A DNA stretch of 63,897 nucleotides, counting the filler, from Rhizaria sp. SCN 62-66 (lineage: Eukaryota): assembly GCA_001724265.1 (NCBI GenBank). It is 3 parts of 3 records of this genome, joined end to end, with 100 filler letters (N's around TTAATTAATTAA, not from the genome) between each part and the next. Parts side by side here need not be neighbours in the genome. Positions count along the whole stretch, not along the records: positions 1 to 22,941 come from MEDY01000433.1; 2 more parts are not named here. The stretch is one strand, 5' to 3'. The position numbers and the translations under genes were made by a program. This document shows, piece after piece, positions 3,619 through 43,643 of the stretch (position 1 is its first letter; each line of letters starts with the position of its first letter). The notes under the pieces are model-generated. The model was given only the letters and a program-made list of their open reading frames with translations. It had not been told where the DNA came from and made no database searches.

Positions 3619-6600
3619 ATGCGCCCGAGCAACCACCATGCCAATGGTGCCGGTGCTCCCGCAGCGGGTTCCGGTGCGTTTTCAGGCGCGGTTGTTGCTT
3701 CCCGGCCGCCACACGTCTCGCTGTCATCGTGCTACTACTCCCTGGCGGCTTTCCACTTTGACCCGCTCACCAAGGCCTCGCACCGCGTCGTGCTCACCTT
3801 CGCGCCCCGCACACGCAGCCTTGTGCTCAGCACCCTTGCCACACCGCGGCTCTCGTTCCCATTCGCCGCGTTCCGCGCGTGCAGCTTCAGCGCGTCCCCC
3901 GACGTCATGCTGTCAGGCTCTGCGACGAGCGCGAGCATCACGGCGCACTCGCTCACGCTCACGCTCGCCGCCGCAACCAACACCGGCGCCAAGGCGACTA
4001 CGCCCACGCAGACGCTGTCGCTTGCTTTTGCCACGGCAGCGGTTGCGTCTCGTGTCGCCACCACCATCAACAAACTCATATCCGTCTTCGCCAGTCCTGA
4101 CTATGCTAATGCTAGCAGTGCGGACGCTGTGACGGCCGCGCTCGGCCGCGCCGCCGTGCCCGCGGCGACGCTGCTCGAGGGCTCTGTGCTGCTGGGCAAC
4201 CAGATTACGGCCACCACGTTCATCACCATCAACAACGTTGCCGCCGACGGCGCCCATGGCGGCGCAATCAGCCGCCGCAGCAGCGAGGTTTCGGGCCAGA
4301 TCGACGACGCAGACGGTGGTAAGCGCGGACTCGGCGGCGGCTGGACCGAGAAGTACCTCATTCTTACCCAGGACCGGCTTTTTGTCTTCACCACAACCCC
4401 GGCAGCGAGCAGCACGAACCAGGGCAACATCCACGGAGGCAGCAGTGTTGTGGTGCCCATCGAAGCCTTTTCGCTGACGTCGATCGTGGGTATGGCCGCG
4501 ACGGCGACCAACACTACGCTGCCCACGCTGCCGCGCTTCGACACCATTACGCAGAGCCACACCGCGGCCGCGGACGGCGACGACGCTGACGCTGACGGCG
4601 GTGCGATCCACGGCCACAGCGGCAGCGGCGGCGCAGGCGCAGGCGGAATGACTGGTGGGCGGACGAAGACGACGACGACTACCATCACGACACCCGGCAA
4701 GGGCGCGGTTACCACCAAGACCACCGTCATCATTCCCGGCTCTAAGGGCAGCAACGGCGCCGGTGACCGTGCGCAGCACGAGCTCAACAGCAACCAAGCC
4801 CCGCAGATGGCCCTGCTGTCGACGGACCTGTCGACGCCGCTGGTGTTCCTGTTCCCGTCGCACGACGCATGCCGCCAGTGGTGCGCCGCGGTCACCGCTG
4901 CCGTTGCCGCGGCCAAGACGGCCCGCGACGCCGCGCGCGCGAAGAAGTCAGGCCGCGAGCGCGAAAAAGCAATCCGCGGGGAGGCCGTGGTGCGCGCCGC
5001 CGCCGACGCCGCCGACGGGAAGACGGTCCCCGGGGGCGTACTTAGCCCGTCTAAGGGGGGCCTCAGGGGCGACATGGGCGTGGGCGCTGGCGCGGCGGGC
5101 GCGGCGGGCGTCGCCGGTACGATCGCCATCACGATCGACAGCTTCGGCCCCGAGCCCGACGCCGATTACGACTCTGCTCACGCCCGCTCGGGCGACTGTG
5201 GCGACGGTGGTGGCGGTGGGTACACGGTGCCGATGCCGCCCGCCGAGTACGACTGGGGCCACTACCCGCCGCCGATCACGCCGCTGCTGGCGCTGAACCG
5301 CGCCGCTAACAGTAACAGCCGCAGCAGCGTCGTCGGCTCGCTCAGCGCCGCCGCGCGCTCTGTCGTGCTTGCGCCCTACCGCGGCAGCTGCGACGCGGCG
5401 CCGTACGTGCCTGCGACGCTCACGCCCTCGCAGCACAACACCGCGCTCTTTACCACCGACGGCAACGGCTCCGTCTCGGGCTCTGGCCCGAACCCCAGCT
5501 CCGTGGGGGCGGGCGTGTTCGCGGCGGGCGCGCTGGCGCTGGCGTCGGGGCTGGCCCACCACGCCGCGCTGCTGCCCAACGGCTCGCTTCACCTCTGGGG
5601 CTCCAACAGCGCCGGGCAGCTGGGTTCAGGCCCCAGCCCGCTCTACGCGCCCGCGCCGCTCGCGCTCACTCCGCTTCACGCGCTCCACGTCGCCATGGTC
5701 GCCTGCGGCGCCAGCCACACAGTCGCGCTCGCCTTTCCCTCTAACCCTAGCCACAGCAACCGCCACGGCCACGGCAACGGCGCGATGGACGGCGGCGCGG
5801 TGTTTGTGTGGGGCAGCAACGCGCGCGGACAGCTCGGCCTGGGGCCCGCGGCGCGCGTGCCGCTGTCGGCGACGCCGCGGCGCCTGGCGCTGCTGCCGCC
5901 GGTGCGCTACATCGCCGCGGGCGGCGACGCCAGCGCCGCTCTCACGGTCTCCGGCCGCGGCTACGCCTGGGGCGCCGACGCCGCCGAATGCGGGCTGTTT
6001 CTGCTTGACCCGGAGCAGAGCCTGCAACTGAGCGTCGGCGCCAACGGCGGCGATGCGAGCAGCGCGAGCCAGACTGCTTCTGCGGCTGGTAACGCTGTGA
6101 GTGTCGCCGTTGTGGGCGAGTATGATGACGGCGACAGTAACGGCGGCGACGCAAAGTCTAGCCGCGTCGTCGCGACACAAGTGCCGCGCGCGGGAACACT
6201 TGCATCTGCGTCGTCGTTGTCCTCTGCGTCACTGCAACAGCAGAAGCCGCCCCAGTGCGACCCGCGGCTGACATTCCCGCGCCACTGCGCGCCGCTGGAC
6301 GGCCCGCTGGTGCAGCTGGCGTTGGACCCGCCCTCGGGCTGCGCGCTCGCGCTATATGCGCCGAACCCCTCGCCCGCGATGCGCTTCTTCCCCTCGCTGC
6401 GCTACGCCGCGCGCTTCCTCGCCCCGGGCGCCAGCGCCGGCGCGAGCGGCGTCTTCCACGCGCTCGTGGAGCGGGCGAGCGCGACCGCGCGCTTGCAGCG
6501 ACTGCAGCAGCGGCAGCAGGCGCAGCAGGACCTCGAGGACGACGAAGACGAGGACGGCGCTGTCCGCGGCTGTGAGAGCGTGAACTTGGATTACGCTGAG

Positions 6601-9600
6601 TCCGGCGGCGGCGACGACGACGACGATGACGACGATGATGACGACTTTGGCGCCTCATCACGCAACTACCTCGGCCGGCCGAAGAGCTCTAAGGGCTACT
6701 TGGACCCTCTGTTCGTGCCCTCCGGCATCGCCTACGACTGTGCGCAGCTGGCCGCGCTGGCGCCCACGGCCATCGCGCTCGTCGGCGCCGTCGCCGCGGT
6801 GACCGACAACGGCGGCGAGCTATACTTTGCCCCCCCGACCCACGCCGCAGCCGCTGCCGCGGCCTCGGGCTCCAGCTCGAGCGCGAACGCGGCCATCGCG
6901 GCCGCAGTCGCAGCGGCAAACCCACCGCCGCCGCTGGCCGCTTCCGCTGTCGCGAGTGTAGGCGTAAGCAGCAATGCCGCGGGCGCGAGCGGCGCGAGCG
7001 CGGACGCCGCTGCGAGCGCGGCCGCTGCGGCGCGGACCGCGGTGCAGCAAAGTGAGACGCGCGCCAATACGCTGGGCATTCTGTCACAGCCGCTGCTCTT
7101 CGGCAACGCCTTCGGGGGTGACGCGGCCGAGAACAAGAGCAAGAGCGCGTTCAACATCAAGTTCACCACTGAGAATAAGGCCGACGGCGCCCCTGTCAGT
7201 CCGTCTCAGGCTGCGCGCAACGCTAACGGCGACTACAACATCGCGGCGACCAAGACCACGGCCGCTGTCGTGCGCAAGCAGAAGCAGGCCGCCGAGTCCG
7301 TCGAGGTGCAGTCGCTACTTTCGTCCGCGCCGCGCATCCCGCCCGTAGCCATTTTTTCGGAACCGCGCCTGGCATCTGTCACGGGCGGCGCGCTTACGGT
7401 TGTTTCGCTCTCCCCCGCGCCCGTCTCCGTCTCTGCCCCCATTTCGACAGCATCCGCATCGAGCGACGCTGCGAGTGCGGCGACTCTGGGCGACTGCGGT
7501 TTCGTCGCCTCGACCGTGAGCGGCGACGTCTGGCATTTCTCCGTCAACAGCAACAGCAGCGCTGGTGCCGGTGCGTTCAAGCCGGCGGCGGTGCACGTGT
7601 CCTTCGCGTCCCCCGTTACCGCGCTCGCGCTCATTTCCCCTGCCCCATACCATAGTAGCGCCAGCACCGCTGCCTCCAGCGGCGCGAGCGCCACGTCGCC
7701 TGCCTGCTTGCTCGCGCTGTCGACAGTGCCTCTGGCGCCGACCGCGCCCCCCGCCGCGCTCACCTCCGCGGGATCCGCCTTCGCCGCCGCCGCCTCCTCC
7801 GCCTCGGGCTCCGCCGCCGCGGGGTCCGCCTTCGCCGCCAAGGCCGGGCCGGGTCGGGCGGCGCCGAGCCGCGGCGCTCCGGCCCGGTCCTCGCCCCAGG
7901 TGCCCTCGGTGCTCAGCAAGTACCTGGACAACCCCGGAAACCTCCCCTTGGCCTCACAGGTGCACAGCGGCTGCACTGGCAGCGGCAATGGCAGCGCGCG
8001 CGCCTCCATCTTTGCTCCAATCGCCCACCATAACGATTCCGACGCGGCGCAGGCCCCGCCGGCGACGGTGAACCTCGGCGGGGCCAGCTCGGGCGCGGCG
8101 GCCCCGCGGCGCCCCGCTCCCTCTGGCGCGGGCGGGGCAGGCGGCGGCGACGCGCTGGCTGGGCTCGCGGGCGGCGCCGTGGCCGACTCCTCGGCCGCGG
8201 TCGCGCTGCAGGCCATGATGCGTAACATGGCCCTTGCCAGCAACGGCGGCGGCGGCGGCGGCAGGGGCGTGGACGTGGGCGCGGCGCTGGCGGCCGCGAG
8301 CGCGGTGCTCAACGCGCACACGGGCGCCACCGACGCCGCTCTGCTCGTCAAGGCGCCCGCCAAGCAGGCGCCGCGCCGGCCGCCCACGGCTGCTCACGCG
8401 GGCGCCGCTAGCAGCTCTAGCGCTGGCAGCGGCTTCGGCGCGGGCGCGAGCGCGAGCGGCAACGTGAGCAGCCACGGCAGCGGAGCCGTCGCGCTCGTCG
8501 GCCTGTCCAGCCACGCCGCCGGCGGGCGCGCCGCCACTGCGGGCGCCGGCCTGGGCGTCAACGTGAGCAGCCCTGGCGGCGCGCATCAGGGAGGTGCAAG
8601 TGCTTCGCACAACGACGTGGGGCTGACGCCCAAGAGCAACGCGCTGCACGGCATGTACAAGGGCGGCTTTGTCCCCGCGCCCAACGCCGTGCGCATCGCC
8701 AACCACACCAACGCCAACTCCACCACCACCGCGCACGCCAACTCTCATGCCCACGCTGGCGAGAGTCGCGGCGGCGGCGGCGGCGGCAAGGCGCGGACAG
8801 CGGCGGCGGGGCGCAGCGTGAGCTTCGCGGCCGGGGTCGGCGCCGACGCGGATGACCGCGATGACGACGGCCACGGCTACGGCGCGTACGACGACGACGC
8901 GGAAGCGCCGCCGCCGCCGCCGCCGCCGCCGCAGCCCTTCACGCCCTCAGCCAACTCGCAGGCGTCGCGCTTCTACGCCTCTCAGTTGTCGCCGCAGTCC
9001 GCGCTGTCGCCGCCGCCGCCGCCACCGCCGCTGTCCACCACGCCGCCCCCGCCGCCGCCGCCGATGTCTGCGCTTTCGCCCTACGCCACTGCTGATGCCG
9101 ACGCGGACGTGTACGCAGAGGCGGCCCTCTCGCCGCCGCCGCCGCCGCCGCCCGCGGAGGTTGACGGCGGGCCCATCGCGGGCGGCTTCAGCTACGGATT
9201 TACCCCGGGCGCCGGCGCGGGGCTTCGCAAGACGGGGCGGCTTAACTTCGAGGCGACCACGAGCGCTGCGAGCCTGCCACCGCCGCCGACACCCACCAAG
9301 GCCGCCGGCGCGGACGCGGGCGGCGCGTTTATCGCGCCCGTTAGCCGCAGCGCCGCCAAGGCTGCGTTGGCAGCTAGTAACGCTAACAGCGACGCCAGCA
9401 GCAGCACGGCTAAATTTGCGCAGAATGCTGCCAACAACAAGGCAGTCGGCGCGCGCGCTATCGGCAACTCTGGCGCCACTGGCCCGATCAGTGCCGGCGC
9501 TGGTGCTGCTGCTGGCGGCGGCGGGAGCGCGGGCATTGCGGCTGCCGTTAGAGCGCGCTTCGGCGGCGGTGGCAGCAATGCCACTGTGACCTCGCATGCT

Positions 9601-10071
9601 GACGGCGACGACGATGATGACTGGAATGCCTTGCCGCCTCCTGCCGCCGCCAAGTCGCCCATCGCCAAGCCCGCCGCCGCCAGCAAGCCTGTTGCTAGCT
9701 CCGGCGGCAACGCGTTCTCGCACTTTTTTGCCGGCGTGCCCCCCGTGTCCGCTCCCGTCACTGCGCCTGCCTCTGCTACGAATAACAACAGCAGCAGCAA
9801 CAACGCTAAGCCGGCGCCTGCGCCAGCCACTCCCGTTGCCGCGCCCGTGTCGTCGTTTAAGGCCCCGTCGCGGCCTCCCACGACAACCAGCGGCGGCTTA
9901 ATTTCCAACACTGGCGGCCTATCTTTCACGCAGAGCAACAAGGCTGCAGTGCTTCCCCCGCGTCCCAGCGTTGCTTCCACCTCTAGCTCCGGCTCGAGTT
10001 CTAGCTCTGCTGCACCTGCGCCTGCCGCTGCCGGCGGCAGTGGTTTCTTCAACCCCCACTACAACAAGAGC

Positions 10072-10108
<37 letters not shown>

Positions 10109-10269
10109 GCAGCGGCGGTGCGAAGGGCGCCGGCGCCGTCGCGCTGTCGCCCGCGGCCTCGGCCTCGGCGGCACACCGTGCACGTGCCGCGGCCGCCGCG
10201 GCCGCGGCGGCGGCGCAGGATGACGATGACGACGACGACCCTGACCTGTGGGAGCTGCCCCCGCCTTAA
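3619..10269 (+). CDS. About 2216-aa protein: PH-like domain, RCC1 repeats, polyproline tracts, WH2-like LRKT motif and acidic-Trp (CA-like) segments
   Basis: Single exon from ATG 3619 to TAA. PH-like motifs WTEKYLILTQDRLFVF and LVFLFPSHDACRQWCAAV. RCC1 motifs LHLWGSNSAGQLG, VACGASHTVAL, VFVWGSNARGQLGLG and IAAGGDASAAL. PolyPro at about 8905-9295. Acidic-Trp motifs DDDDDW and DDDDDDDPDLW. Confidence 0.85.
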
Positions 10270-11334
10270 GTTAGGCTGTGCGGGGATGCGATGGTCACCC
10301 ACACCCCGTTTTATTACTCTAAACAATTATTGTAAGGCTTACGGATCAATACTGCTTGTTTGCAGTCTAGTTCTTTTTTCTTTGTGGCCTCAGTGGCTAG
10401 CGTGACACATATCCGAACATACGGACACTTCAGTGCTATTTCCCAGTTTAAAGTGCCTGAGTATTTGTATATCTGGGCGCTTCGCGTTGTCATAGTTTCT
10501 GAGGCCTTTGTACAGCTTTTTTTAATGTGACGGCAAAAGGAAGTATTCAAGCACACTTTTGGAACTTTGTTGTGTTGGTCTTTGTTATAATCTTTCTCAT
10601 AACCATGTTTTGATTGTTTTCTTTCATTCGGTCTGTTCTAAGCGTTCGTTTCATCGGGATCTGCACTAGTTGCTGTTGTTCACTTTCTAGTCACAGTAAC
10701 AGTCCGTCCATGTATCTCTTCTCTTGTACAAATATTCAAATCGTAACTTCGCAACATCACTATTTTCTATCGTGCAATTTCGATGCATTTCTCGGCAATA
10801 TAGCTTCATTGATTTGTGTATCAACAACCTGTACATTTGTCGTTTGCATCAAGCAGCAAACAAAACGTTAATACATCACGGTCGTAAGCTAACACGCGAC
10901 TTCGCACAAAAGATGCATCCGTAAATTGTTTTGAGAGAAGATTATGTTTATTATTATATAGAGTGATAAAATATAAAACGTCAAAATGTACAAAACAGAC
11001 AGTACTTAACATATTAGAGTCAAATCAATATTCCCTGCCTCTTGTCGCAGCACAGCAATCATTAGAATCACGCAAATCAACAAAAGACGTTGAGTGAGGT
11101 GATTATAAACTCTGCTGTGTACAATGACATGCATATTACTTTTTTTTTTGTTTTTGTTTAGAACTATTTCTCTTTGGTTTTTGTTGGCTTTTTTTTTCCA
11201 TCATAACTTTCTAATGACAGCTTTCTACAATTCAACCACCTTCCTTCCAAGATCACAGCGAATCAAGCACTTATGCCGAGCACGCACTCGAGTAGAATGC
11301 GAAAACTGCAGCCGCCGAGCAGTCTCGTGCGCGC

Positions 11335-13581
11335 TTAAGTAAGACGGCACTCCTCGGAAACCTCGCCGGACCAGTCGCCGGCCAGGTGCACCGGCTCGTG
11401 CTCGGTGACGTTCTCGAGCGTCTGCGGGATGACGCGGCGCTGCAGCATGCGCACGATGAGCGTCAGCTCGCGCAGCTCGTCGCGCAGCCCATTGATGTAG
11501 TTGGTCAACGCGCGGAACTGCGTCTTGACGCCCTGCCAGTTGACGCTGTTGAGGCGGTTCTGCACAGAGCCGCCCACGCGGACCGCGCCGTTCGCCGCGG
11601 CGGCGCCGGAGGCGGCCGCGCCGGGCACGCCGCCCGGGCCACCGGAGGGAACGACGGCGCCCGCTGCGTTAACGGTGCCGTTGCCGGTCTTGTCCGCGCT
11701 AGCGCCCGCGGCGGAGCCGTAGAGCGCGAAGTCCTCGGCGCCGCCGATGTCCTTGCGCTCCATGGCGGCCTTGAGCATCGTGTGGAGCGACATGAACTCG
11801 TCGAACACGATGGTGAGGTCGCCGTCGACATCGACCTTCTGCATCAGCACCTTGAACTCGACGGGCGACAGCTTAATGCCTTCGTCGTTAAGGAAGCGGT
11901 GCATCTGGTCGTACGTGAGCCGGCCGTCGCGGTCCGCGTCAAGGTCCTCGAAGTGACCGCGCATGAACTCGACGTCACGCGCTGCTTCATCAGCGTAGTC
12001 GATCTCGTGCTGGCGGATCAGGATGCGCGCGCGCGTGCTGAAGTCGATCGGGAAAGACTTGCAAAGCAGGAGGAATTCGTCCTTGTCGACGACACCGTTG
12101 CCGTTGAGGTCGAGCTTGCGCATGATCTTGAGGATCTGCGCATCCGTCTGAGGCATGCCCATAAGCTCGAACGCGCGCTTGACTTCATCGAACTCGAGCT
12201 GCTTGTTGTCGTCGGCGTCGACGATGTCGAACACAGCCTCCAGCTCGTCGTTGGACAGCTCGCGCCGCGCGCCGCCCGCGGCGCCGCCGGAGAGGAGGCG
12301 GATGCGGAGCTCCTCGGCCTTGCGGTCGTTGAGCTCGGGGTCGTTGACGATCTCGTCCTCGATAGGCGGCACGTCGCACACGAGCTCGTCGGCCGCGATC
12401 TGAAGCGCGAGCCGCTCGCGGTCGTGGCGCGACAGCAGCGTGCCCTTGATGTTCTGAGACAGCTTCTCGTACTTGTCCTGCACCTGCTCGAAGTCGACCT
12501 CCTTCTCGTACTTGACGAGGCGATAGAAGCGGCTGCGCGGGACGACATAGAGCATCAGCAGATCGATGACTAGGATCGAGAGCAGGATGAGCGCGACAAC
12601 GGACGCGACGTGCACAAAGAGCAGCGGGAACTCGAAGCGGCCGATAGTGCCGACCTGGACGAAGGTAACGCGGATGGCGTTGCGCTCCTGCACGGTGCGC
12701 GTGAGGTCCGAGAGCTTGCGCGGCAGCACCTCGGAGGCCACAAAGCCCTCGCGCGGAATGCGGTACGGCAGGTACTCGTACGTGGGCGCGGCTTGGAGGT
12801 TGGCGACATTGCTGTACTTGATGAAGACGACGAGTGCGATGCCGTCGCCGCGGATCGACACATCGGACGATGTCGAGCACAGATTGCTGTCACAGCGCAC
12901 GTCGATCGAAGTCATCCCGGCCGCCGTGAGAAGCAGCCGCAGGGACACGGCGTCGGCGATGCCCGTGGCGGGGAACTCCTGCAGCACAGCGCCGGCGGCG
13001 TTGCGAAGCGAGCCCACGCCCGAGGTCGAGCGGATCGTGTACTTGCCCTCGTCGCCCGTGCTGTAGTAGATGCGCGAGCCCTGTGCGTAGTGCACGAGCT
13101 CGACCTCGAAGTCCTCCACGCCCGCAACGTATTGGTACGGCGTGAGCCCGCCGGCGTTCACCTCCCAGGGCGTCGTGCACACTTTATCGGTACAGTCCGC
13201 GCTGAGCGTCTCGTCGGCGGAGCGGAAGCGCGTGGTAGCGAAGATGTTGTTGTCGCCAACTGAGTTGAGGCTGGCGTCGAGCGCGTCCATGTGCGCGCAG
13301 TCGAGAGGGAAGGTGAGGGTGGGCAGCGACGACTGCTCGCAGTAGGTCAGCGCGTCGAAGTCGATGTCCAGCGCGGGCGGGCGGACGAGTTTGGAGAAGA
13401 CGGCGCCCGTGGGGACATCCTCGCGCATGTAGTATTTGCCGTCGATGATGACGGCGTAGACGAGGTACACGATGATGGGGCACACGAAGAGCAGCCGCAG
13501 AAAACCGAGGAGCTTGTCGCGGATGATCACCGTCTTCGGCGTCGAGTACGACAGCACGTCGCGGACGGAACAACAGCTCAT
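11335..13581 (-). CDS. P2X-family cation channel (non-metazoan type) with four C-terminal EF-hands, 748 aa
   Basis: N-terminal YSTPK (YxTxK) motif followed by TM1, then a Cys-containing ectodomain. RNAIRVTFVQVGTIGRFEF leads into TM2, followed by FYRLVKYE (YxxxK). EF loops: DADDNKQLEFDE, DLNGNGVVDKDE, DADRDGRLTYDQ, DVDGDLTIVFDE. Ends in TAA. Confidence 0.9.
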   Translation of the reverse strand: MSCCSVRDVLSYSTPKTVIIRDKLLGFLRLLFVCPIIVYLVYAVIIDGKYYMREDVPTGAVFSKLVRPPALDIDFDALTYCEQSSLPTLTFPLDCAHMDALDASLNSVGDNNIFATTRFRSADETLSADCTDKVCTTPWEVNAGGLTPYQYVAGVEDFEVELVHYAQGSRIYYSTGDEGKYTIRSTSGVGSLRNAAGAVLQEFPATGIADAVSLRLLLTAAGMTSIDVRCDSNLCSTSSDVSIRGDGIALVVFIKYSNVANLQAAPTYEYLPYRIPREGFVASEVLPRKLSDLTRTVQERNAIRVTFVQVGTIGRFEFPLLFVHVASVVALILLSILVIDLLMLYVVPRSRFYRLVKYEKEVDFEQVQDKYEKLSQNIKGTLLSRHDRERLALQIAADELVCDVPPIEDEIVNDPELNDRKAEELRIRLLSGGAAGGARRELSNDELEAVFDIVDADDNKQLEFDEVKRAFELMGMPQTDAQILKIMRKLDLNGNGVVDKDEFLLLCKSFPIDFSTRARILIRQHEIDYADEAARDVEFMRGHFEDLDADRDGRLTYDQMHRFLNDEGIKLSPVEFKVLMQKVDVDGDLTIVFDEFMSLHTMLKAAMERKDIGGAEDFALYGSAAGASADKTGNGTVNAAGAVVPSGGPGGVPGAAASGAAAANGAVRVGGSVQNRLNSVNWQGVKTQFRALTNYINGLRDELRELTLIVRMLQRRVIPQTLENVTEHEPVHLAGDWSGEVSEECRLT

Positions 13582-15497
13582 GGTGACGGTACGTTACTGT
13601 GTGACTGCAAGAACTGTGTGTGTAGCTGCGGAGAGCGTGTCGTGTTGCGCGTTATTCAAGTGGCGATGCTTTCTTGTCTGTCAGCTTGTGAAAAAACTAG
13701 ATAGATCACAGAAAGACGGAGAAAGTGGGTTGCGAAGAGTCAAGTTGAGCTAGGTAAGAAACAAGTGCTAGTGCGACCAGACTGAGCCTTGTTGTTGTGT
13801 TGAACTAAAGAGAGAGCGGGCGCAAAGGATGCGATGGCGACTGCTGCTGCGAGCGCTTGCTGCTGCCGGTAGAGCGTCCGTGCTTCGACTCAGACTCTAC
13901 ACGAAGGGCGTAGGTAAAAGTCAGAAGAACGGGGAGAGCGCGCGTGGTGCTGCTTGTCTCTGCTGTGAGGTGGAGCTGCTACGGGAAGCGAGCAGGGGCA
14001 CACAGCAAGAGCAACGCACGGGCGAAAAGGGGATACGAACCCACGCACGCGGCCGGAGTTTGCGCGCGAACGAAAGGGGCTGTGGGGATAGGACCAAGAC
14101 CAAGTGCGACGTGGCACAGGTGTCTGAACTGATGGGGAGGTTTTGGTGGAAAAGATAAAGATGGGGAAGCAGGAGGCGTTGTTAAGGGAAGGGGAGCGTT
14201 TGCAGAGCAGTGCACTGAGGTCAGAAACCACCGCACTGGAGGGCGGGGATCGTAACTGAAGCCAAACAACAAAATACCTAAGCGAAAAACAATTCGAAAC
14301 GCAGATAAATTTAAATATTTTGCGCAACAACGGTTCTCCTGGCTCACAACCGAGGGGGAAACACGAGCCGTCAACCCCCTTTCCTGTCGGTCGCAAATTA
14401 AGCCGCGCTTCGACCGGCCGAGTTCAGTCCACCGGCAAGGCTCGCGCGACCGCCATTCTCTCCAAAAGGGTGTAGGGCTGTTGAACGTCGTCAGATGCGT
14501 GTAGGATTTTGATGTGTGATATGAGGGTACCCATTACATTTGATTTCTAAAATTCATATGTAATGGATTTTGTTTCGTATGTCTAATCTCTTGTGGCGTA
14601 ATCGTTGCTTTGATTCGAGTGAAGTGCCTCGTTCGTCATGATGTTTCTGCGCGCTATCTTCGCAATACTTGCTGGGTTTTTGTATAAGAGTTGAGTATAT
14701 TACGCGATGTCACGGACTATATTGCATGTTTTAGCGCGATTTGATCTGACGTTTGTCTATGATGTGGTATCCGCTATACTGTCTCAGTTTTGAGGTGCAT
14801 TTAAGATCATTGAAAGCGAAAGTCCTAACTTTGATAACGCACTTAAATGACCTAACTAACAAATCACGTTAGATTATGTTTGTTAAGACTCTTTGACCTG
14901 CATTATATCATGGTTTTGTCGAAGTGTCTCTTGATCATATCGTGACTCACGGCTATTGATGGACACGCACTAACCTTCGTCAGCTGTCGCCAGAAGATAT
15001 GCACACTTCGCGACATTTCTAAGGTTTGTCCTTCTTCTATAGCATGAGCTGTTGTACTTAGTGCAGTAGATGACTTGTTTGCGCTCTTTTACATTGTTTT
15101 CATTCTATTGTATATCATTTAATGATGCAATGAGAAGTCCTCCTCTGAGCTTCCACCACCTTGATCATGCTTTAACAATCTGTTCATTGGGTATCTCACA
15201 TGTGCGCAGTTGTTCCGCATATTTCAGCTTCTTCGATCTCCTATGCAAGTTATCATATTGACTAAAATACTGATCTTCCAAACACTGTCCACCCTTGAAT
15301 ATTAGTTTCCAAGGCTCAATCGATGTTTGCCGCGCGCGAGCTTAAATCATAATAATAAGCATCAACAAAGACGAATCCACGATATGTTATATAAAATCTA
15401 CTATTATTTCACCCACCCAAGTTTCAAATAAAATAACGCAGATATAGCGACTCATATCCTTCGCTTAGTGAACAGGACCACATGCACTTGTTCCGGT

Positions 15498-19239: not shown

Positions 19240-20539
19240 ATGCTGCGCCGTGTCTGCCGCGGCGTTGCCCGCTGTCCTCCCGTGACAGCCTCGACTGCTG
19301 CCGCCGTCTCTGCCACTCTCAGCAACGCGACATTTGCCTCTATCGCACTCTCTCACTCTGCGGCGACTACTGGCTCTAGTATTTGTGCTGTCAAACGCAG
19401 CGCCACCGGCAAGAAAACCTCCACCAGCTCTGTGAGCCCTCTGCTTTCCGCCCCCGTGCTCCGTTTCTCCACTAATTCAAGCTCTTCCGCTCACACCCCC
19501 ACCGCCTCTGCCAACGACGCGTGGCTGGCCGACCACGCGCGCACGCACGTGCCCACGTCCCCGCTGCAGCGCCTTGCGCTGCTGGGCTCGTCGGCTGTGA
19601 TCAGCCTGCTCAACACGCACCGCGGCGACGCCGTGGCGAACGTCGGCGAGCTGCTCTTCTCGGAGCCGGCGCTCCAGGACCTGCGCGCGCGCATGCTTAA
19701 GACCGAGGAGGGCGCGCAGCTGCTTATGGACAAGCCCCGCGTGCTCGACGCCGCGCGTGCGTACTTCGCCAGCAAGCGCAGCAACGCCACCAGCAGCGAC
19801 ACCAGCAGCAAAACCGACATCATCACTGACAGCAGTTGCGCTGCTGCGAACGACAACGTGAACGGCGTGGAGCTGACCGCTGCGGGCACGGTGGTGCTGA
19901 CGCCCGCGATGGAGCTCGAGTGGCTGCAGCACCTGCACGCGCTGCCCGCCAGCACTTTCGGTCACGCGTACGCAGAGTACATGCTGGACCACAGCTACCT
20001 GCCCTCGGCGCGCGCGCCCGTGCGCTTCGTGGCCTGCCCCGAGCTGGCGTACGTGCTGCAGCGCCACCGCGAGGTGCACGACTATCTGCACGTGCTCACG
20101 GCCACCGCACCCTCGGTGCAGGGCGAGCTGGCGCTCAAGGCGCTTGAGTTCGCGCAGACCGGGCTGCCCTCGGCCGCGGCATCGGTCGCCGCCGCGGGCG
20201 CACTAAGGCTCCCGCTCGCCGAGAAGGGTGAACTCGTCACGCGCGCGCTGCCTTGGGCCAGGCGCGTCAGCGACGGCATCAACGCCAGGTACGATCCGCG
20301 GACGCACGCACGCACACTGTTATTAATTGAGCTCGCTTTTGTAACTCCCAAACGTTATGACCGTATCATGACACTTATGCTGACATCTGTTTCTCTTTGT
20401 TGATATCTGTCTTTTCTTTACTGTCTCTGCGCGCAGGACCGGCGGTGCGGGCGCGCTGGCCGTGCCGTTTGAGACCATGTTTGAGTGGGACCTGGCGCTG
20501 GTGCGCGAGATGACTGGCGTGGCCGAGCCCTACAACTGA
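19240..20539 (+). CDS. COQ4: Ubiquinone biosynthesis protein COQ4, mitochondrial; exons 19240-20288, 20437-20539; 383 aa
   Basis: Arg/Ser-rich presequence, then RGDAVANVGE, LPASTFGHAY, and the HDxxH..E motif in YVLQRHREVHDYLHVL...GELALKALEFAQTGLP. A GTACGA...CAG intron restores a COQ4-like C-terminus (FETMFEWDLALVREMTGV). TGA stop. Confidence 0.92.
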
Positions 20540-21621: not shown

Positions 21622-22559
21622 ATTGCTGCCGCCAAAGCGCGCAAAGGGCGTGCCGAGCGCGGCCCGCGCCGCCATTTGCTGCGGTGTCCCGCAATACCCC
21701 GCGCCGTGGCCGCCGCCGCCACTCAGCGCACTGTAGCTGTCGTAGCCGCTTCCGTCCGCGCTGGCGCTAGTCGAGCCGCCGCCGCCGCCACCGCTGAGGT
21801 TTGCCGACGACGAAGACGGGAGAGCGCGGGCCGTGGCGCGGTAGCTGTTGCTGCGGCCGTCGCCGGAGAGGCGTGCGGCGAGCGTCTGCGTGAGGCGCGC
21901 GTGCGTCTCCGACTGCGGCGGCGGTTCGATGCGGCCGGTCGTGGTGTGGTAGTAGTTGTTGTACACGGACGTGATCGTCGGCGCGGGGGCAAGCGGGGCC
22001 GCGCGGTACGTGTTGCGGCGCGCAAAGGAAGAGTTGAAGAGCTCGTTTTCGGCACGGACGCGCTCCTTCCAGCCGTTGCACTCGATGTTGGTGATGATGC
22101 TGCGGTCATTGAGGCTAACAGAGTCGCGCGCGCATAGAGCAAGAGAGAGAAACAAGAAGGAACGAAAAAACACAGGCAACACGTGACAATTACAGGTGAA
22201 CAGAGTTAGTTGCATTGGTAAAGATGTTGACCAATAGGCTGCGAGCGATAAGAGGGAGGAAAGCGCGAGTGCTCGGAGTGACAGAGCGCAGCTTTAGAGC
22301 CTTGCTATATTCGTCAGAGGAAGCGCAAGACGTACTAGTAGGTAGAAGCAAGCATCGGAGCAGCGCGAGGGGTGTAGCCGTAGTAGCTGTTGCTGTTGGC
22401 ATTCGCGTAGGAGTTCGAGCCCGAGGCAGCGGTAGTCGCGGATGCAGTAGCAGTAGAGACAGGAGCAGGGGCCGGGGCGGGAGCGCCAGCGTTGGAGGCG
22501 TTGCCGGCACTGGCAGCGGCGCCCGATGTCGGGGCTTGCTGGAACTGTGCAGAAGACAT
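21382..22559 (-). CDS. Hypothetical protein with a poly-Asn tract; exons 22559-22336, 22114-21382; 318 aa
   Basis: A GTACGT...TAG intron joins two GC3-rich frames in phase (TY-Y|LNDRSIITNIECNGWKERVRAENE). TGA stop. No family recognised. Confidence 0.7.
21556..21621. repeat. (GTT)22 microsatellite encoding poly-Asn on the minus strand
   Basis: Perfect trinucleotide run read directly from the sequence. Confidence 0.95.
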
Positions 22560-24636: not shown

Positions 24637-24852
24637 ATGTCTGCTCCGACCTACACCGCGGCCCCCGTCCCGGCCCCCGGCGCGCTCTCCGGCTCGGCCG
24701 GCTCCGGCTCTGTCTCGGGCTCGATGTCCAGCAGCATGGGCAGCCCTGGCATGCCCCCGCCGCAGCGCACCTCAAACCTCCCTATCTCGCAGCAGCAGCA
24801 TGATCAGCAAGCCACATACCAGCAGCAACAGCAGCAGCACTATTACCACCAC

Positions 24853-24884
<32 letters not shown>

Positions 24885-26291
24885 CTCGGTAGGCAGCGTC
24901 AACGGCGCGGCGATGCCCCAGTCCAACCAGTCCACGGTGCCGCCCGCTCTGGGCTCGCCCGCCGACGCCTCCGTCTCCGGCTACAACACGGCCAACAACA
25001 ACAACAACCATCTGCAGCAGCAGCAGCAGTACTATAGCGGTTTCGCGCCCCCCTCGTCCTCCCCGGCTATCCCCGTCTCTGCCCACGGTCACAGCGGCGG
25101 CCACAGCGGCGGCGGCGGCATCTCCGGCGTGACCCTCAACGCCTCGGCACCGGGCGTGTTCGGCAGCGGCGCGCTGGGCCACTCACACGCGCTGGTGCCG
25201 CCCAGCCCGGTCTTCGACGAGGCCACGCCCGTCGACATGACCCACGAGGAGCACCGCGCCTACCTGGAGGACGCACGCAAGACCGCCGCCGCCGCCGCCG
25301 CGCAGCACTACCAGCAACAGCTCCAGCAGCAGCAGCAGCAGCAGGCGCAGGCGCAGCAGCAGCGCGCTCTGCAACAGCAGCAGCAGCAGCAACAAGGGCA
25401 GTCGCTGCCTCAGCAGCAGCAGCGCATGGGCGGGTTCTCCCCTGTGCCGCTGTCCGGCTTACCGCCTCTGGCCCCCGGGCCCGCCTCGGCCGCCGCCAAC
25501 CAGGCCGCGCACGCCGCCGCCGCCGCTGCCGCCGCCGCTGTGGCCGCCGGGAGCAGCCCCAGCTCCACGAGCAACAACTACAGTAACAACGGCGTCAACG
25601 GTGCCTCAGGTGGCGTCGCGTGTTCCCCGGGCACGGCGTCCCCGTCCTTCACGGGCAACCCGATCGGCGCGGCGCTGGTGCAGTGCGCGTCGCCCTCGCT
25701 GCCCGCCGCCGCGCGGTCCGTGCTCAAGGACGTGCAGGCTCTCGTGGCGGGCTACGCGCTGGGCCCGGTGCTTGGCATCGGCACCTACGGCGAGGTGCGC
25801 GCGGGCATTTCGATCAAGACGGGCGAGCAGGTCGCCGTGAAGCTCGTGGACCTGTCGCGCTTCCGCTCCGAGACGGCGGCGCTGATGCTGCGCGAGATCA
25901 CCATCCTGCAGCGGCTAGACCATAAGCACTGCATCAAGGTCGTTGACGTGTTGCACGACGTCCCCGTCGAGGGCACCTTCTGCTCTAAGTGCGCTTGCAC
26001 GTGCTACAAACCCCCGCTGACGGGCGGCATCACCTCCGCGGGCTCCGCCGCCGCCGCGCAGGCCGCCGCGCAGGCCGCCGCCACGGGCGCCCCAGCCCCC
26101 GCGATCTGCCTCCACTGCAGCCACGAAGTCGCCTCGCACCACGCCACGCCCGTCACGCGGCCGCTGCTGGTGATCATCCAGGAGATCGCGGCGGGCGGTG
26201 AGCTCTTTGCGATGCTGATGCAGTGCGGCGCGCTGCCGGAGCCCGTGGCGCGGGTGTACTTCACGCAGCTGCTGGACGCGATCGAGCACTG

Positions 26292-26325
<34 letters not shown>

Positions 26326-29300
26326 CCAGAGAACCTGGTCTTCGACTCGAACTTCTCGCTTAAGGTCGTCGACTTCGGGCTCGCGGCCTGCGTCGCGGAC
26401 CGCCCCGCGGGATCGATTGAGCGCGAGCTGGCCGTGCTGCACTCGGGCGTCGGGTCCAAGCCCTACTCGGCACCCGAGGTCTCGTACACGCGCGAGATGT
26501 ACAACGCCTCGGGCTACAAGGGCTATCCGGCGGACCTGTGGTCCTGCGCCGTCGTGCTCTTCGTCATGCTCGCGGGCCGCCCGCCCTTCTACAAGCCGCT
26601 GCTCAAGACCTTCAACCCCAACATGGTCAAATGCAAGCACTTTGCGCGCATCCTTAAGGGACAGGTACGCTCGAAACAAAATACCTTAAGTTTTGGTAAG
26701 CTGTTATCTGTTTAATTTATGTGTCTTTGAACATATCTAACTTGTTGTTCCTCTTCTTCTGAATCGCTTTGATCTTTTGCTTGTTCCATCACCACAGGGC
26801 TACGAGGGCGTGACTCCGGTCGCGAAGGATCTGATCGCGAGCATCTTCAAGCTGAACCCCGACGAGCGCCTGACGATCCCGCAGATCCGCGCGCACCCGT
26901 GGCTGTGCGGGCCTGAGGCGCTGGCGCAGCAACAGGCGCTCACGCCCATGGCTCTGCTGCAGTGGATGGAGACCCGCGTGCGCGCGACTTGGGCCTCGAT
27001 GCGACGGCCGGACATGGGCCGCGTGCTGGACCAGGCCCGCCTGCTCGACAGCACTCGCGGGACGCCTGAGGGCGTGTCGCTGTGCCGCGGGCTCGCGCTG
27101 GCGGCGCGCGGCGTCGTCTACACGGCCATCGCCGAGACGGACATGACCGAGCTGTCCCTGGACCAGTCCAACGCCAGCGTCGCCGCCACAACTACCCCCG
27201 GCGCCGCCCCTGCCGCCGCCGCCGCCGCCGCGGGTGCTGCCCCCGCTGTCCTCACCGCGGCCCCCAGCACTGCGACTGCCCAGACCTCGGCTGCGGCCGC
27301 GACGGCGGCGGTCAAGCCGCCCGTGCCGGCCCCGGCCCAGCCCCAGGCCCAGTCCGGCGCCGGCGTGGGCGTCACTGTGCAGGCCCCGGTGCAGCCCGCG
27401 AAGCCTGCCATGTCGTGGCCGGCCATCGCGGCCGACTCGCCCACGGTCACCGGCAGCATCGGTCCCTCGGGCCGTTACCTGCCCATGCTGCCGCCCTCAG
27501 CCATGCCACCCTCCGCCGCCGCCGCCGCGGTCGGTAACCCCGCCGGCATTTCCGCGTTCGTCTCATCCGGGACGGGCCCCAGTGCGGGCCCCAGTGCGGG
27601 CGCGGGCGCGGGCGCGGGCGCGGGCTCCCTGCCGCCGCCCTCGGCTTCGACTGGCGCCGGCGTCGGCGCTTTCGCTCAAGCCCAGGCCCAAGCCCAAGCC
27701 CAGGCGCAGGCGCAGGCTCAGGCCCACGCTGCTTCTCAGCAGCAGCAGGGCTCTCGCTCGCTGTACACTCAGCAGCAACAGCAGGGCCAGCAGCAGCAGC
27801 AGCAGCAGCAGGGCCAGAGCGTCTTCGGCTCCGGCGGCTTCTCGGCTCATAGTAACGCCCCGGGGGCGGGCGCAGTCCGCCCCAGCGTGTTCCTCGGTCC
27901 CCCCGGCGGCGTGCTGATCCCCCCCATGTCGCTCTCTTCCACGCAACCCCGCTCCAACGCCCCTGCCGGCGCTGGCGCGGGCGCGGGCGCGGGCGCAGGC
28001 GCAGGCTCCGGAGGCGTCCCGGCCTCTCCGCTCCAGACCCGCTCCTCGGCCTCTGTCTCCGCCACTGGCGCCGGCTCTGGCTCTGCGGGGCCGCAGCAGT
28101 CGCCCCGCTCCCACCACCAGCAGCAGCAGCAGCAGCAGCAGGGCCAGCAGGCGATGGTCGACACGAGCGTGAGCAACAACAACAGCGCGGTCGGCGTGCT
28201 GCCGCCTCTGAACAACCGCCAGTCGCTGCCGCCGTCCTACTCGTTGTCTTTCTCCATGGCTACCCAGGGCCACCAGCTTGCGCCCGCCCCCGCTCAGGCC
28301 TCCGGCTCCGGCGCCGGCGCGATGGGCATGGGCATGGGCATGGGCGGCATGGGCGGTATGGCGATGGGGTCGAGCACGGCGGCCCCCGCGGCGCCGCTGT
28401 CGATGCCGCCCGCGCCGCTCTCGGCCTCGTCGTCGCCGCGCAACCGTGGCAACAGCGTCACCGGTGGCGGCGCCAGCGGTGAGGGTTCGATCCTCGCGCT
28501 GGGCGCGAAGCTGAGCATGCCGGGCAACATCGACCGCGATCACTCTGTCCCCGACGCGATGCTGGTCTCGGCCGGCGACGGCGACGCGGCGGCGCTGCAC
28601 TCGGCCACGGTGTCCCCGACGGGCGTGCTGCGCTCGCTCGACGCGCGCGCGGGGTCCGGCGCCGCGTCCCGCTCCGCCTCGGGTCATTACCTCCACCAGC
28701 AGCAGCAGCAACAACAATACCAGGGCCAGCAGCAGCAGCAGGGGCAGCAGCAGGGCATGGGCCAGGCGCAGTATGGCCACCAAGGCCGCGCCATGACCAC
28801 CGCGTCGCCCACGGCCACCCCGCGCGGCCTGACCTCCGCCGGCAGCGGCGGGCTCGGCGTGACGTCGCCCAACCCAGGCAACGTCTTCGCGCCTCCGCTG
28901 CCGCTGCCGCTGCCGCTGCCGCTGCCCATGCCCTCCAACTCCGGCTCCGGGTCCGGCGGCTCCATCTCCGTCAACCACAACAACAACAACAACAGCGGCA
29001 GCAACGGCTTGGCGCCGGCCTCGCTGTCGGGCTCGGGCAGTCTCAGCATCGGCAGCGGCAGCGGCAGCGTCAACGGCAGTGCACCGATGCTCATCCCGCC
29101 CCCCCGGACCGCCGCTGGCGGCAGCGCCTTCGCCCAGCAGGCCCAGCAGCAGCACACTCCGCACCACCACGGGCATCCGCAGCAGCACCCGCAGCAGCAG
29201 CGCGCGCTGGCTGCGACACCGCTGCAGACGCCCATGGTCGGCCCCTCGTCACCGGGTTGGGGGCCCCACACCTCGGGCTTCTCGCCCATGCCGTCGCCCG

Positions 29301-39878: not shown

Positions 39879-40206
39879 AGACGCAATTCGTCGCTCTAAC
39901 GATTTACCGATGATACCTAGAACATGTTGTCAGGGCCTGTTTGTAACATTGTCAAGCCAAACCAATACATTATTGAAATATTATTGAAATATATGTTCTT
40001 TTCACTCATCATGTCCCAGTTACAAGTGTTAATGCTGTGAATAATTGTAAATAAAGTGCTTATTAATGTATTCTGAGCAACTGCACGTGTTGCTTTGCAT
40101 GATTATGAGTGTCATGGCCCTACACTGTGACACCGCATGTGTTAACTGTTGACTAATGTTGTCGTTTCTCTTGTTGCTCGCAGGAACGTGCGTGTGTGAG
40201 TCACAC

Positions 40207-41342: not shown

Positions 41343-41375
<33 letters not shown>

Positions 41376-42542: not shown

Positions 42543-42583
<41 letters not shown>

Positions 42584-43606: not shown

Positions 43607-43643
<37 letters not shown>

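Follow-up and report, generated by a model that had tools for sequence, protein, structure and literature searches.

Among ligand-gated channels, P2X receptors form a major class. Where Ca2+ regulates them, the agent identified to date has been a separate protein, calmodulin or VILIP1, that docks on the tail. The stretch of DNA analyzed here (the window, 63,897 nucleotides from Rhizaria sp. SCN 62-66) holds a reading frame that a first-pass annotation described as a P2X channel fused to a calmodulin-like four-EF-hand module and a coiled coil. Is the fusion real, and what could a Ca2+ sensor built into every subunit do for such a channel? The source is an uncultured eukaryote, GC-rich and intron-poor, found in wastewater or bioreactor metagenomes.

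The gene and its P2X core

ORF analysis of the window gives an uninterrupted ATG-to-stop frame of 748 aa at 11335-13581 on the minus strand; in alignment, its N-terminus and last residue line up the same way in orthologues. The parts assigned to it are as follows.

11335..13581, minus strand: complete CDS, 748 aa and stop (stop codon 11335-11337); both ends colinear with orthologues
13516..13581, minus strand: predicted cytosolic N-terminus, aa 1-22, with YSTPK (YxTxK) at aa 12-16; motif search
13441..13515, minus strand: predicted TM1 helix, aa 23-47; AF2 helix with pLDDT >95, aligning to TM1 of human P2X4 (hP2X4)
12631..13440, minus strand: predicted beta-rich ectodomain, aa 48-317; sequence, AF2 model and structure matches
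12547..12630, minus strand: predicted TM2 pore helix, aa 318-345, with D340; AF2 helix H318-345
12262..12546, minus strand: predicted juxtamembrane cytosolic helices, aa 346-440, with YRLVK (YxxxK) at 353-357; AF2 and motif
12049..12261, minus strand: EF-hand pair 1, aa 441-511 (loops 455-466 and 491-502); Pfam, loop check and fold
11977..12048, minus strand: inter-lobe segment, aa 512-535, with conserved FPIDFSTRARILI motif; inside the long helix H514-547
11764..11976, minus strand: EF-hand pair 2, aa 536-606 (loops 548-559 and 584-595); Pfam, loop check and fold
11566..11763, minus strand: Gly/Ala-rich low-complexity linker, aa 607-672; pLDDT <50 for 613-677, dN/dS 0.49
11338..11565, minus strand: conserved C-terminal module, aa 673-748; orthologue alignment, AF2 and dN/dS
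11431-11538, minus strand: predicted heptad helix, aa 682-717, 36 residues; AF2, pLDDT 71-77
11338-11349, minus strand: final CRLT; sequence

A chimeric contig, or two genes mis-called as one read-through, would be the trivial explanation for this arrangement: the window comes from a metagenome assembly, and long spurious ORFs are frequent in GC-rich DNA of this kind. However, 11425-13685 is matched without a single difference by a DNA contig that another study assembled (X3, record 2), and the gene is joint-free in all four comparisons of DNA and RNA contigs with the window. Poly-A metatranscriptome contigs (X5) are colinear at 11287-11499, 11657-11817, 12250-12508, 12570-12810, 12912-13068 and 13327-13825, a gapped cover (X5, X6) of a kind from which transcription is not provable. 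Orthologues in other assemblies have their parts in an identical order along the full protein. An artefact is already contradicted by these observations and is hardly credible; the fusion of P2X and EF-hands is genuine and old, and the single exon proposed at the outset is borne out by the joint-free, colinear DNA and poly-A RNA contigs. An Rfam scan returned no match in the window.

That the N-terminal half is P2X, as first annotated, was upheld by profile and fold comparisons. Pfam places PF00864 on the protein in two stretches at 48.4 bits (cut-off 27). With residues 1-380 as a phmmer query against the PDB, 18 of 18 matches are P2X chains (best human P2X4 9gp7, E 6e-8), and a 144-sequence family profile, aligned through its positions 19-347, finds hP2X4 9bqh (E 2.6e-44). 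The AlphaFold2 model has a mean pLDDT of 79, mostly >90 in the core. Its best 40 listed Foldseek matches in the PDB are all P2X, led by 9bqh (E 4.8e-17), as are all among the 50 rows listed by VIA-align, where human P2X3 5svk is best, aligning over model residues 9-363 with 288 positions matched (Z 17.2, rmsd 5.2 A). Sequence and model together identify the protein as a P2X-fold subunit, with two predicted TM helices around a beta-rich ectodomain; the channel presumably forms as a trimer.

The short motifs agree. YxTxK/R, a TM2 Asp and a YxxxK following TM2 are described as P2X motifs (PMC3853471). Within the YxTxK motif, Tyr is kept in 113/141 relatives, Thr in 112/141 and Lys in 103/141. D340 aligns to the TM2 Asp of hP2X4 (the equivalent of rat P2X2 D349), in a column that holds Asp in 92 of 141 relatives and Glu in 40. 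Packing of the juxtamembrane helices is uncertain because their pLDDT is 43-68.

EF-hands, linker and C-terminal module

EF-hand_7 scores 82.9 bits in two stretches (Pfam). We called a loop canonical if it has D at position 1, D/N/S at 3, D/N/S/G at 5 and E/D at 12. Loop 1 (aa 455-466, DADDNKQLEFDE), loop 2 (aa 491-502, DLNGNGVVDKDE) and loop 4 (aa 584-595, DVDGDLTIVFDE) are canonical; loop 3 (aa 548-559, DADRDGRLTYDQ) has Q at position 12, just as the first-pass annotation had read it. The four loops occupy DNA 11797-12219, inside the range of about 11790-12250 in which two EF-hand pairs had been anticipated. D584 and D586 are invariant in six lineages, as is R517 of the inter-lobe segment. 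By their chemistry, these loops may bind Ca2+.

In structure comparison, both lobes of the cytosolic model (aa 441-511 and 531-610) find EF lobes, including, both at Z 9.3, a calmodulin C-lobe (69 residues, rmsd 2.3 A) and troponin C (77 residues, rmsd 2.1 A). Calmodulin sequence matches reach E about 1e-7 at best and span single lobes each, and the helix between the lobes, H514-547, is 34 residues long in the AF2 model. By these predictions, the module is calmodulin-like but not calmodulin proper.

Beyond the linker, the C-terminal module carries a EPVHLAGDWSGE motif and the heptad helix. The helix peptide originally singled out (aa 689-713, DNA 11443-11517) sits within the longer predicted helix 682-717. 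Counted from W682, 11 of 12 a/d positions are hydrophobic over 42 residues, and the other six registers give 1-7 of 12. The expected terminal heptad helix is thus there, in one clean register, and its pattern favors a coiled coil; the description of the tail as a coiled coil holds that far, but the tail is more than that, being a module that ends with an invariant Cys at -4. We also considered helix 682-717 as a calmodulin-type target (W682, F689, I696, K686, R690); the heptad register favors the coiled coil, and the two are not mutually exclusive.

The Cys at -4 is present in 7/7 module-bearing lineages, whose last four residues are CRLT, CRLT, CRIN, CQLN, CKTT, CRLN and CKLQ. A Cys four from the end in all seven lineages makes a CaaX-like lipid anchor possible, and Cys745 is its putative attachment point; a charged or polar residue at a1 sets the box apart from a canonical CaaX. 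A search with the C-terminal module found it in 3 of 110 candidates, all P2X-EF proteins, and an Atlas fold search with the module returned just generic long-helix look-alikes (TM <=0.51), with no family nameable.

Family, selection and proposed mode of action

The whole architecture occurs in at least seven lineages (P0003, P0004, P0015, P0005, P0007, P0016 and P0116) at about 30% identity; P0010 and P0042 are P2X proteins with EF-hands but a different tail. The family was recovered by exhaustive HMMER search, two word-indexed protein searches having each given just the protein itself and P0004. Of seven loci in a metagenome scan, just two, L001 and L002, encode full-length members of the family. 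In a 135-row tree, the EF-bearing rows fall within one group of eight rows (SH-like support 91), and none of 500 label shuffles was as clustered. Our literature search found no published P2X with fused EF-hands, which agrees with the initial remark that no such channel was known; the protein is not a singleton, though, and with its relatives makes up a small and apparently undescribed channel family.

Viral homologues were sought as well. An IMG/VR scan gave 12 pattern matches, none confirmed; tblastn of phage records gave zero matches; and a BFVD fold search gave the ChoanoV1 P2X (E 7.7e-24) and small EF-hand proteins, nothing else. These blanks are no argument that viral relatives are lacking. 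A "P2X receptor" is annotated in all five Bathycoccus viruses (PMC8528832).

Canonical loops number 3, 3, 1, 1, 2, 1 and 0 across the seven lineages (Q12 loops uncounted). All four loops are retained solely in the window lineage and its closest relative P0004, EF2 is degenerate in 5/7 lineages, and P0116 has zero canonical loops. The proposal of up to 12 sites per trimer therefore suits this lineage and P0004 but not the other five, which have 0-2 canonical loops each; the family may share a scaffold rather than four Ca2+ sites. Selection was estimated against the nearest orthologue gene, L001, a single gene pair with dS about 0.75, near saturation: dN/dS is 0.047 for EF1-2, 0.086 for EF3-4 and 0.066 for the C-terminal module, with 0.28 for TM2, 0.43 for the ectodomain and 0.49 for the linker. 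Constraint is greatest on the EF pairs and the C-terminal module, which are under strong purifying selection. Across lineages the module is also best conserved, at 39-50% identity vs 27-30% for the ectodomain.

For the working of the whole, we tentatively prefer, at a little below an even chance, a P2X-fold subunit whose tethered calmodulin-like sensor gives Ca2+ feedback on the gate. The N-terminus, TM1, ectodomain and TM2 would make up the channel part, and the two EF-hand lobes joined by their long helix would be the cytosolic sensor, followed by a floppy Gly/Ala linker, an amphipathic helix of five heptads and a terminus that Cys745 may tie to the membrane through a lipid. The pore keeps the TM2 Asp that accompanies Ca2+ permeability in other P2X channels. 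Opening would probably be by a nucleotide or related ligand from the extracellular or luminal side. Ca2+ rising at the cytosolic mouth would load the EF loops, of which each subunit in this lineage could fill as many as four. The change could reach the gate by either of two routes, the juxtamembrane helices that follow TM2 or the three C-terminal helices, possibly bundled beneath the pore; the outcome would be built-in feedback, as facilitation or inactivation. Such feedback on gating is plausible, the link from EF-hands to gate being modeled at low confidence (pLDDT 43-68 for 361-440 and <50 for 613-677); ligand, sign of the Ca2+ effect, lipidation and host membrane are our inference. That a separate Ca2+ sensor can act on P2X has precedents in rat P2X7-calmodulin and P2X2-VILIP1 (PMC3360091) and in lysosomal P2X4-calmodulin (PMC4477861, PMC11381013).

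How much of an ATP site is left bears directly on the trigger. K67, K69 and K313 are the phosphate-binding lysines of hP2X4. The K67 equivalent is K64 in two independent alignments; at K69 this protein has V66, adjoined by R67, and at K313 it has E299, adjoined by R300, in a column that is R in 121/141 relatives. No N-x-R or NF was found in residues 1-380 by sequence search, and the NFR of hP2X4 (N293/R295) falls in an insertion that is absent from the protist family in the profile alignment. Of the classical contacts the K67 equivalent alone appears to be present, and the predicted site is partly recognizable. The ectodomain has six Cys (81, 95, 130, 135, 230 and 235), not ten as in animal-type receptors; C81, C95 and C135 are nearly invariant across the protist family.

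These losses leave room for a channel whose ectodomain is no longer a nucleotide receptor and which opens mainly when cytosolic Ca2+ acts on the EF module, as a Ca2+-activated or CICR-type channel. Besides the missing K69, NFR and K313 equivalents, the EF clade has replaced R62, K281 and H301, which are kept in 82, 94 and 96 of 141 relatives (this protein has F62 and V281), and dN/dS of 0.05-0.09 on the cytosolic modules vs 0.43 on the ectodomain is compatible with relaxed ligand binding. On the other hand, K64 still aligns with K67, R300 is kept in 6/8 clade members and R244 and R295 of this protein are invariant there, while 0-2 canonical loops in five lineages are awkward for Ca2+ as the primary gate. 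Moreover, Dictyostelium dP2XB lacks one classical lysine and dP2XE both, and both are nevertheless ATP-gated (PMC2787382); missing lysines are therefore no predictor of lost ATP gating. We consider Ca2+ as the opener unlikely, and give marginally less credence to its fullest form, a small clade, in uncultured protists, of Ca2+-opened CICR channels of the contractile vacuole or endolysosome, with ATP gating lost, a trimeric coiled coil and a lipid-anchored C-terminus. A somewhat better, though still minor, prospect is that the gate is untouched and that the EF module and tail sense exiting Ca2+ and, depending on it, recruit or activate partners, for example the membrane fusion or trafficking machinery of the contractile vacuole or endolysosome, so that calmodulin, organelle-bound in other systems, would here form one protein with the channel. 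Conservation is highest in the C-terminal module, the roughly 65 disordered residues before it suit an interaction module over a gating lever, and the putative anchor at Cys745 would keep it at the membrane. The host lives in fresh or waste water, where protists usually have contractile vacuoles. Ca2+ from mammalian lysosomal P2X4 activates bound calmodulin and promotes fusion (PMC4477861, PMC11381013), and all five Dictyostelium P2X are placed on the contractile vacuole and influence Ca2+ signaling inside the cell (PMC2787382). Against this coupling, the module has no known partner and is confined to P2X-EF proteins, giving no guilt by association. Lastly, the EF module could be a Ca2+-independent pseudo-EF-hand scaffold that, with the coiled coil, stabilizes or localizes the trimer. 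The degenerate EF2 points this way, as does P0116, which retains the inter-lobe motif, helix and Cys without canonical loops; yet the window protein and P0004 each have three fully canonical loops and a fourth that departs from the pattern solely by Q12, purifying selection on loop residues is strong (dN/dS 0.05-0.09), and 6/7 lineages have at least one canonical loop. This we hold to be improbable.

A sensor fused one per subunit would offer a simple system for learning how a cytosolic Ca2+ signal reaches a P2X gate, and likewise what role the cytoplasmic side plays in "primitive" P2X channels. With its ATP site partly dismantled and its cytosolic modules so strongly conserved, the protein prompts one to ask whether the P2X fold now serves a different trigger. 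The Cys that is invariant at -4 suggests that the protein attaches to the membrane at a second site, which is not known for P2X channels.

Place among known channels and sensors

What appears new here is a P2X with a fused four-EF-hand module and coiled-coil tail; the P2X fold and EF-hand sensors in trans were already known. Animal P2X receptors (human P2X4 9bqh, P2X3 5svk and P2X7 9e3m) share the fold and topology of this protein (Z 16-17 across some 290 residues), with YxTxK, the TM2 Asp, YxxxK and the K67 equivalent in common. They differ in their ten ectodomain Cys, NFR, K69 and K313; the Cys-rich head of P2X4 is absent here, hP2X4 having long insertions relative to the family profile. Nor do they have a counterpart of the 390-aa cytosolic tail with its EF-hands and coiled coil, the long tail of P2X7 being a different domain (Pfam P2RX7_C).

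Dictyostelium P2XA-E and Ostreococcus tauri OtP2X are likewise protist P2X with a poorly conserved ectodomain. Some of these "primitive" receptors are ATP-gated without the classical lysines, and their residence is on intracellular membranes, those of the contractile vacuole (PMC2787382, PMC3853471). They are about 380-400 aa long with short tails, whereas this protein has 748 aa; OtP2X, in which Asn replaces the TM2 Asp retained here, has low Ca2+ permeability (PMC3853471). In the P2X7-calmodulin, lysosomal P2X4-calmodulin and P2X2-VILIP1 complexes, a cytosolic EF-hand sensor modulates current or downstream fusion (PMC3360091, PMC4477861). The sensor in those complexes is separate and reversibly bound; here it is fused covalently, one per subunit.

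The best whole-protein sequence match in the PDB is the calmodulin-like domain of a CDPK (2aao, E 6e-9), and CDPKs follow the same logic of a built-in EF sensor beside an effector; the effector, a kinase, is unrelated, and homology is confined to the EF-hand fold. Dictyostelium P2XA has been linked to the EF-hand Rab-GAP CnrF, a connection that we did not use as evidence. Among other channels, plant TPC1 has EF-hands within a two-pore channel, an effector unrelated to P2X, and polycystin-2, a TRP channel and likewise an unrelated effector, has a C-terminal EF-hand and then a coiled coil, in the same order as here. The P2X-EF family widens this catalogue of channels with built-in EF-hands.

A fused reading frame and its neighbourhood

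The P2X-EF gene occupies a single ATG-to-stop frame encoding 748 aa (the query), in high-GC DNA whose two strands both carry long unbroken ORFs.

Features of the window
11335-13581 (-): P2X-EF gene
3619-10269 (+), 19240-20403 (+), 24637-26715 (+), 34029-35261 (+), 36599-37471 (-): ordinary eukaryotic neighbours, namely a 2216-aa RCC1-repeat protein, Coq4, two protein kinases and an LRR protein
40561-45291 (-): 1576-aa ORF outside any Pfam family, with long poly-Q/poly-N runs and helical stretches rich in Arg/Glu
21851-21945 (+): candidate tRNA-Thr (CGT), 95 nt (ARAGORN), with room for an intron

Metagenomes of bioreactors, wastewater and activated sludge, sampled in several studies, contain near-identical DNA. 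A DNA contig of 2261 nt, assembled in a study separate from the probable source, spans 11425-13685 with no differences. Contigs from a poly-A metatranscriptome (X5) lie colinear on six pieces from 11287 to 13825, extending beyond both the start and the stop codon, and no joint within the gene was seen in any of four runs. The P2X-EF fusion is real; that it is an artefact is barely credible, being countered by the zero-difference contig and the joint-free runs. The single exon of the first-pass annotation agrees with the colinear poly-A contigs, which leave gaps, with the spanning DNA contig and with the lack of joints (0 of 4 runs). The contigs fit an intron-less, expressed gene of putative transcription, contigs from RNA libraries (which DNA may contaminate) being no proof of transcription.

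In one run (X4), a second contig over the 3' end of the gene (11333-11539) differs at 18 of 207 bases and lies beside a contig with no differences; the same sludge community appears to include a close relative, whether strain or species. The neighbouring genes all seem intron-less, their orientation alternates, and eight further long window ORFs have no Pfam family. The 1576-aa ORF overlaps a strong AT skew (-0.35 to -0.39 at 40001-44000). Rfam, at gathering thresholds, matched nothing anywhere in the window, the tRNA-Thr candidate included.

Domain architecture of the protein

The query is a P2X family member by profile, motifs and fold, and the P2X core expected in its N-terminal half is borne out by PF00864 (Pfam; 48.4 bits, cut-off 27), by phmmer and by VIA-align. 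Residues 1-380 matched only P2X chains among PDB sequences (18/18 by phmmer), the best being human P2X4 9gp7 (E 6e-8), aligned over TM1 and TM2 with their flanks. When 1.84 billion representatives were searched exhaustively with the same residues (HMMER), 763 proteins came out at E <=1e-3, 311 at <=1e-10 and 14 at <=1e-30. All of the best 150 of these 763, scanned in batches of 37 and 113, match PF00864, P0143 doing so below cut-off (23.1 bits). An alignment of 144 sequences (the query, 140 of the 150 relatives and three cluster members, omitting ten relatives shorter than 330 aa) gave a profile matching full-length human P2X4 9bqh at E 2.6e-44 over profile positions 19-347. The AlphaFold2 model built on it (mean pLDDT 79.2, pTM 0.53, core mostly >90) has helices 23-47 and 318-345 flanking a beta-rich ectodomain. 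Foldseek matches listed from the PDB are P2X throughout (best E 4.8e-17, TM by target 0.50-0.61), as are 50/50 listed VIA-align rows, the best being 5svk (Z 17.2, rmsd 5.2 A, 288 aligned, model residues 9-363); an ESM Atlas model reaches TM 0.82 by target against a 'P2X receptor B' cluster over residues 1-398.

Landmarks described for the family are a YxTxK-type motif, a YxxxK-type motif after TM2 and a TM2 Asp (PMC3853471). The query has YSTPK at 12-16 (Y113/T112/K103 in the columns of 141 relatives), YRLVK at 353-357 (Y136/K120) and D340 (D92 plus E40). A Cys-Cys pair at the extreme N-terminus (aa 3-4, MSCCS, in the 13573-13575 region; aa 4-5, MGKCCS, in the relative P0004) aligns with the CC of human P2X4 MAGCC and could be an acylation site.

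The EF-hand_7 profile matches two stretches (82.9 bits), in keeping with the two EF-hand pairs already annotated, and four loops were located.

EF-hand loops of the query
455-466: loop 1, DADDNKQLEFDE
491-502: loop 2, DLNGNGVVDKDE
548-559: loop 3, DADRDGRLTYDQ
584-595: loop 4, DVDGDLTIVFDE

Ligand positions 1, 3, 5 and 12 are canonical in loops 1, 2 and 4, and loop 3 does end in Q at position 12, as had been read. The best PDB sequence matches are the CDPK calmodulin-like domain 2aao (E 6e-9), troponin C and calmodulins. A second AlphaFold2 model (residues 351-748, 11 sequences; mean pLDDT 64, EF part 73-87), compared with 48,161 PDB representatives, matched in two separate blocks, one per lobe: calmodulin C-lobe (Z 9.3, rmsd 2.3 A over 69 residues) and troponin C (Z 9.3, rmsd 2.1 A over 77 residues). 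Because whole four-EF proteins align only at rmsd 12-15 A, the relative placement of the two lobes is undefined; a 34-residue helix (514-547) bearing a conserved FPIDFSTRARILI motif connects them.

After the EF module comes a Gly/Ala-rich stretch (pLDDT <50 for 613-677) and then a helix at 682-717 (pLDDT 71-77). Counted from W682, its a/d positions are hydrophobic in 11/12 cases (1-7/12 in the remaining registers), which upholds the terminal heptad helix of the first-pass annotation. Downstream lie EPVHLAGDWSGE and the final CRLT. Among 110 candidates from a search with this C-terminal module (aa 673-748), three carry it, all P2X-EF proteins. Cys stands at -4 from the C-terminus in 7/7 module-bearing lineages (CRLT, CRLT, CRIN, CQLN, CKTT, CRLN, CKLQ), and P0026, a related P2X without EF-hands, terminates in CRVS. 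This is the position of the CaaX lipidation signal, with a polar or charged next residue and hence a non-canonical box; a C-terminal lipid anchor is a candidate, if a somewhat doubtful one.

Relatives, selection and the ligand site

EF-hand families exceed Pfam cut-offs in six of the best 150 representatives (of 763), P0004, P0005, P0007, P0010, P0015 and P0016; P0042 falls below (22.3 bits, cut-off 30), and the 113 relatives shorter than 481 aa have none. The whole plan is common down to the last residue in P0004 (66-74% identical to the query) and in P0015, P0005, P0007 and P0016 (~30%). In P0116 (932 aa, Lys/Glu-rich) the loops are degenerate but the inter-lobe motif, helix and terminal Cys persist. 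The built-in EF array on a P2X channel thus stands as an architecture and falls as a singleton, at least seven lineages sharing it. With Q12 loops uncounted, canonical loops number 3 in the query and in P0004, 2 in P0007, 1 each in P0015, P0005 and P0016, and 0 in P0116; EF2 is degenerate in 5/7 lineages. Full-length loci in JGI metagenomes are only L001 and L002, among seven confirmed.

A FastTree phylogeny (135 rows, 326 columns; six rows covering <70% of residues 8-370, P0015 included, and three near-duplicates left out) places the seven EF-labelled rows and P0116 in one 8-row group with SH-like support of 91, which is not strong. The EF label needs at least 2 changes, and 0/500 shuffles were equally clustered; one origin of the fusion is possible. 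P0010 (817 aa) is a second version of the architecture: its P2X core is followed by four fully canonical loops (465, 502, 635, 674), the insert between the lobes is far longer, and the end, unrelated and rich in Pro/Gln/Ser, has neither helix nor Cys. P0047 (555 aa) and P0135 (535 aa), paired with support 100, represent another P2X fusion, the core being followed by ZFYVE26-like TPR (PF25569, 73 bits).

dN/dS (Nei-Gojobori) of the query against L001, the nearest orthologue; one pair, dS ~0.75
Whole gene: 0.27
Ectodomain: 0.43
TM2: 0.28
Juxtamembrane: 0.36
EF pair 1: 0.047
EF pair 2: 0.086
Low-complexity linker: 0.49
C-terminal module: 0.066

In deeper lineages, identity of the C-terminal module (39-50%) and EF pair 1 (34-54%) likewise exceeds that of the ectodomain (27-30%).

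The ATP site is, from its residues, recognisable only in part. In human P2X4, ATP is contacted by K67, K69, K313 and NFR; the positions opposite these residues come from alignments. K67 faces query K64 in two independent alignments, K69 faces V66 (R67 adjoins), K313 faces E299 (R300 adjoins), and NFR falls, in the profile alignment, in a stretch absent from the whole protist family. Query residues 1-380 have no N-x-R or NF, and the query lacks the animal-type set of ten conserved ectodomain cysteines; with these two animal-type features missing, it is at most a putative ATP-gated receptor. Across the wider protist family another set of basic residues is conserved, from which the EF clade (8 members) departs at three columns, keeping R244 in 8/8 members and R300 in 6/8.

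Conserved basic columns (query numbering) in 141 relatives, with EF-clade residues where it departs
62: R in 82; EF clade F, Y, W, W, Q, E, S, T
244: R in 135
281: K in 94; EF clade V, S, K, S, R, S, I, Q
300: R in 121
301: H in 96; EF clade N, N, A, D, V, H, Y, G

Proposed action and known systems

The EF module is cytosolic in whatever membrane the channel resides. Our tentative reading is of a ligand-gated P2X in which a ligand would open the channel, Ca2+ at the cytosolic mouth would fill the tethered EF sensor, and the loaded sensor would feed back on gating, through the juxtamembrane helices or a three-helix bundle beneath the pore. The residues at the conserved basic columns point to a remodelled ligand site in the EF clade, which bears on the unlikely alternative that the channel has lost nucleotide gating and is opened mainly by Ca2+. 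Dictyostelium dP2XB and dP2XE are without one or both classical lysines and yet ATP-gated (PMC2787382), so a remodelled site is not proof of lost ATP gating.

Coupling of the sensor and tail to partners, linking Ca2+ release to them, is doubtful; it has models in lysosomal P2X4 with calmodulin (PMC4477861; PMC11381013) and in Dictyostelium contractile-vacuole P2X proteins (PMC2787382). Canonical Ca2+ loops are unevenly retained across the family. A tail acting as a Ca2+-independent scaffold seems quite improbable. For feedback on a ligand-gated channel, OtP2X offers a comparison: its TM2 Asp is replaced by Asn, which goes with low Ca2+ permeability (PMC3853471), whereas the query pore retains the Asp.

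A 426-aa 'ATP P2X receptor' of a choanoflagellate giant virus (Mimiviridae sp. ChoanoV1, BFVD A0A5B8IF04) has a predicted fold matching the query model at E 7.7e-24 and is too short for the query's 390-aa tail. For Bathycoccus viruses the published record gives just 'P2X receptor' (PMC8528832), and no link from that group to the query's emerged from IMG/VR, phage records or BFVD folds. Full-text searches of the open-access literature turned up no account of a P2X fused to EF-hands. The sole EF-hand mention in the available part of a large P2X review is VILIP1 (PMC3360091), which acts in trans, whereas the sensor of the query is fused. The window's P2X-EF protein is set apart by its complete four-loop calmodulin-like module, its coiled coil and its invariant -4 Cys.
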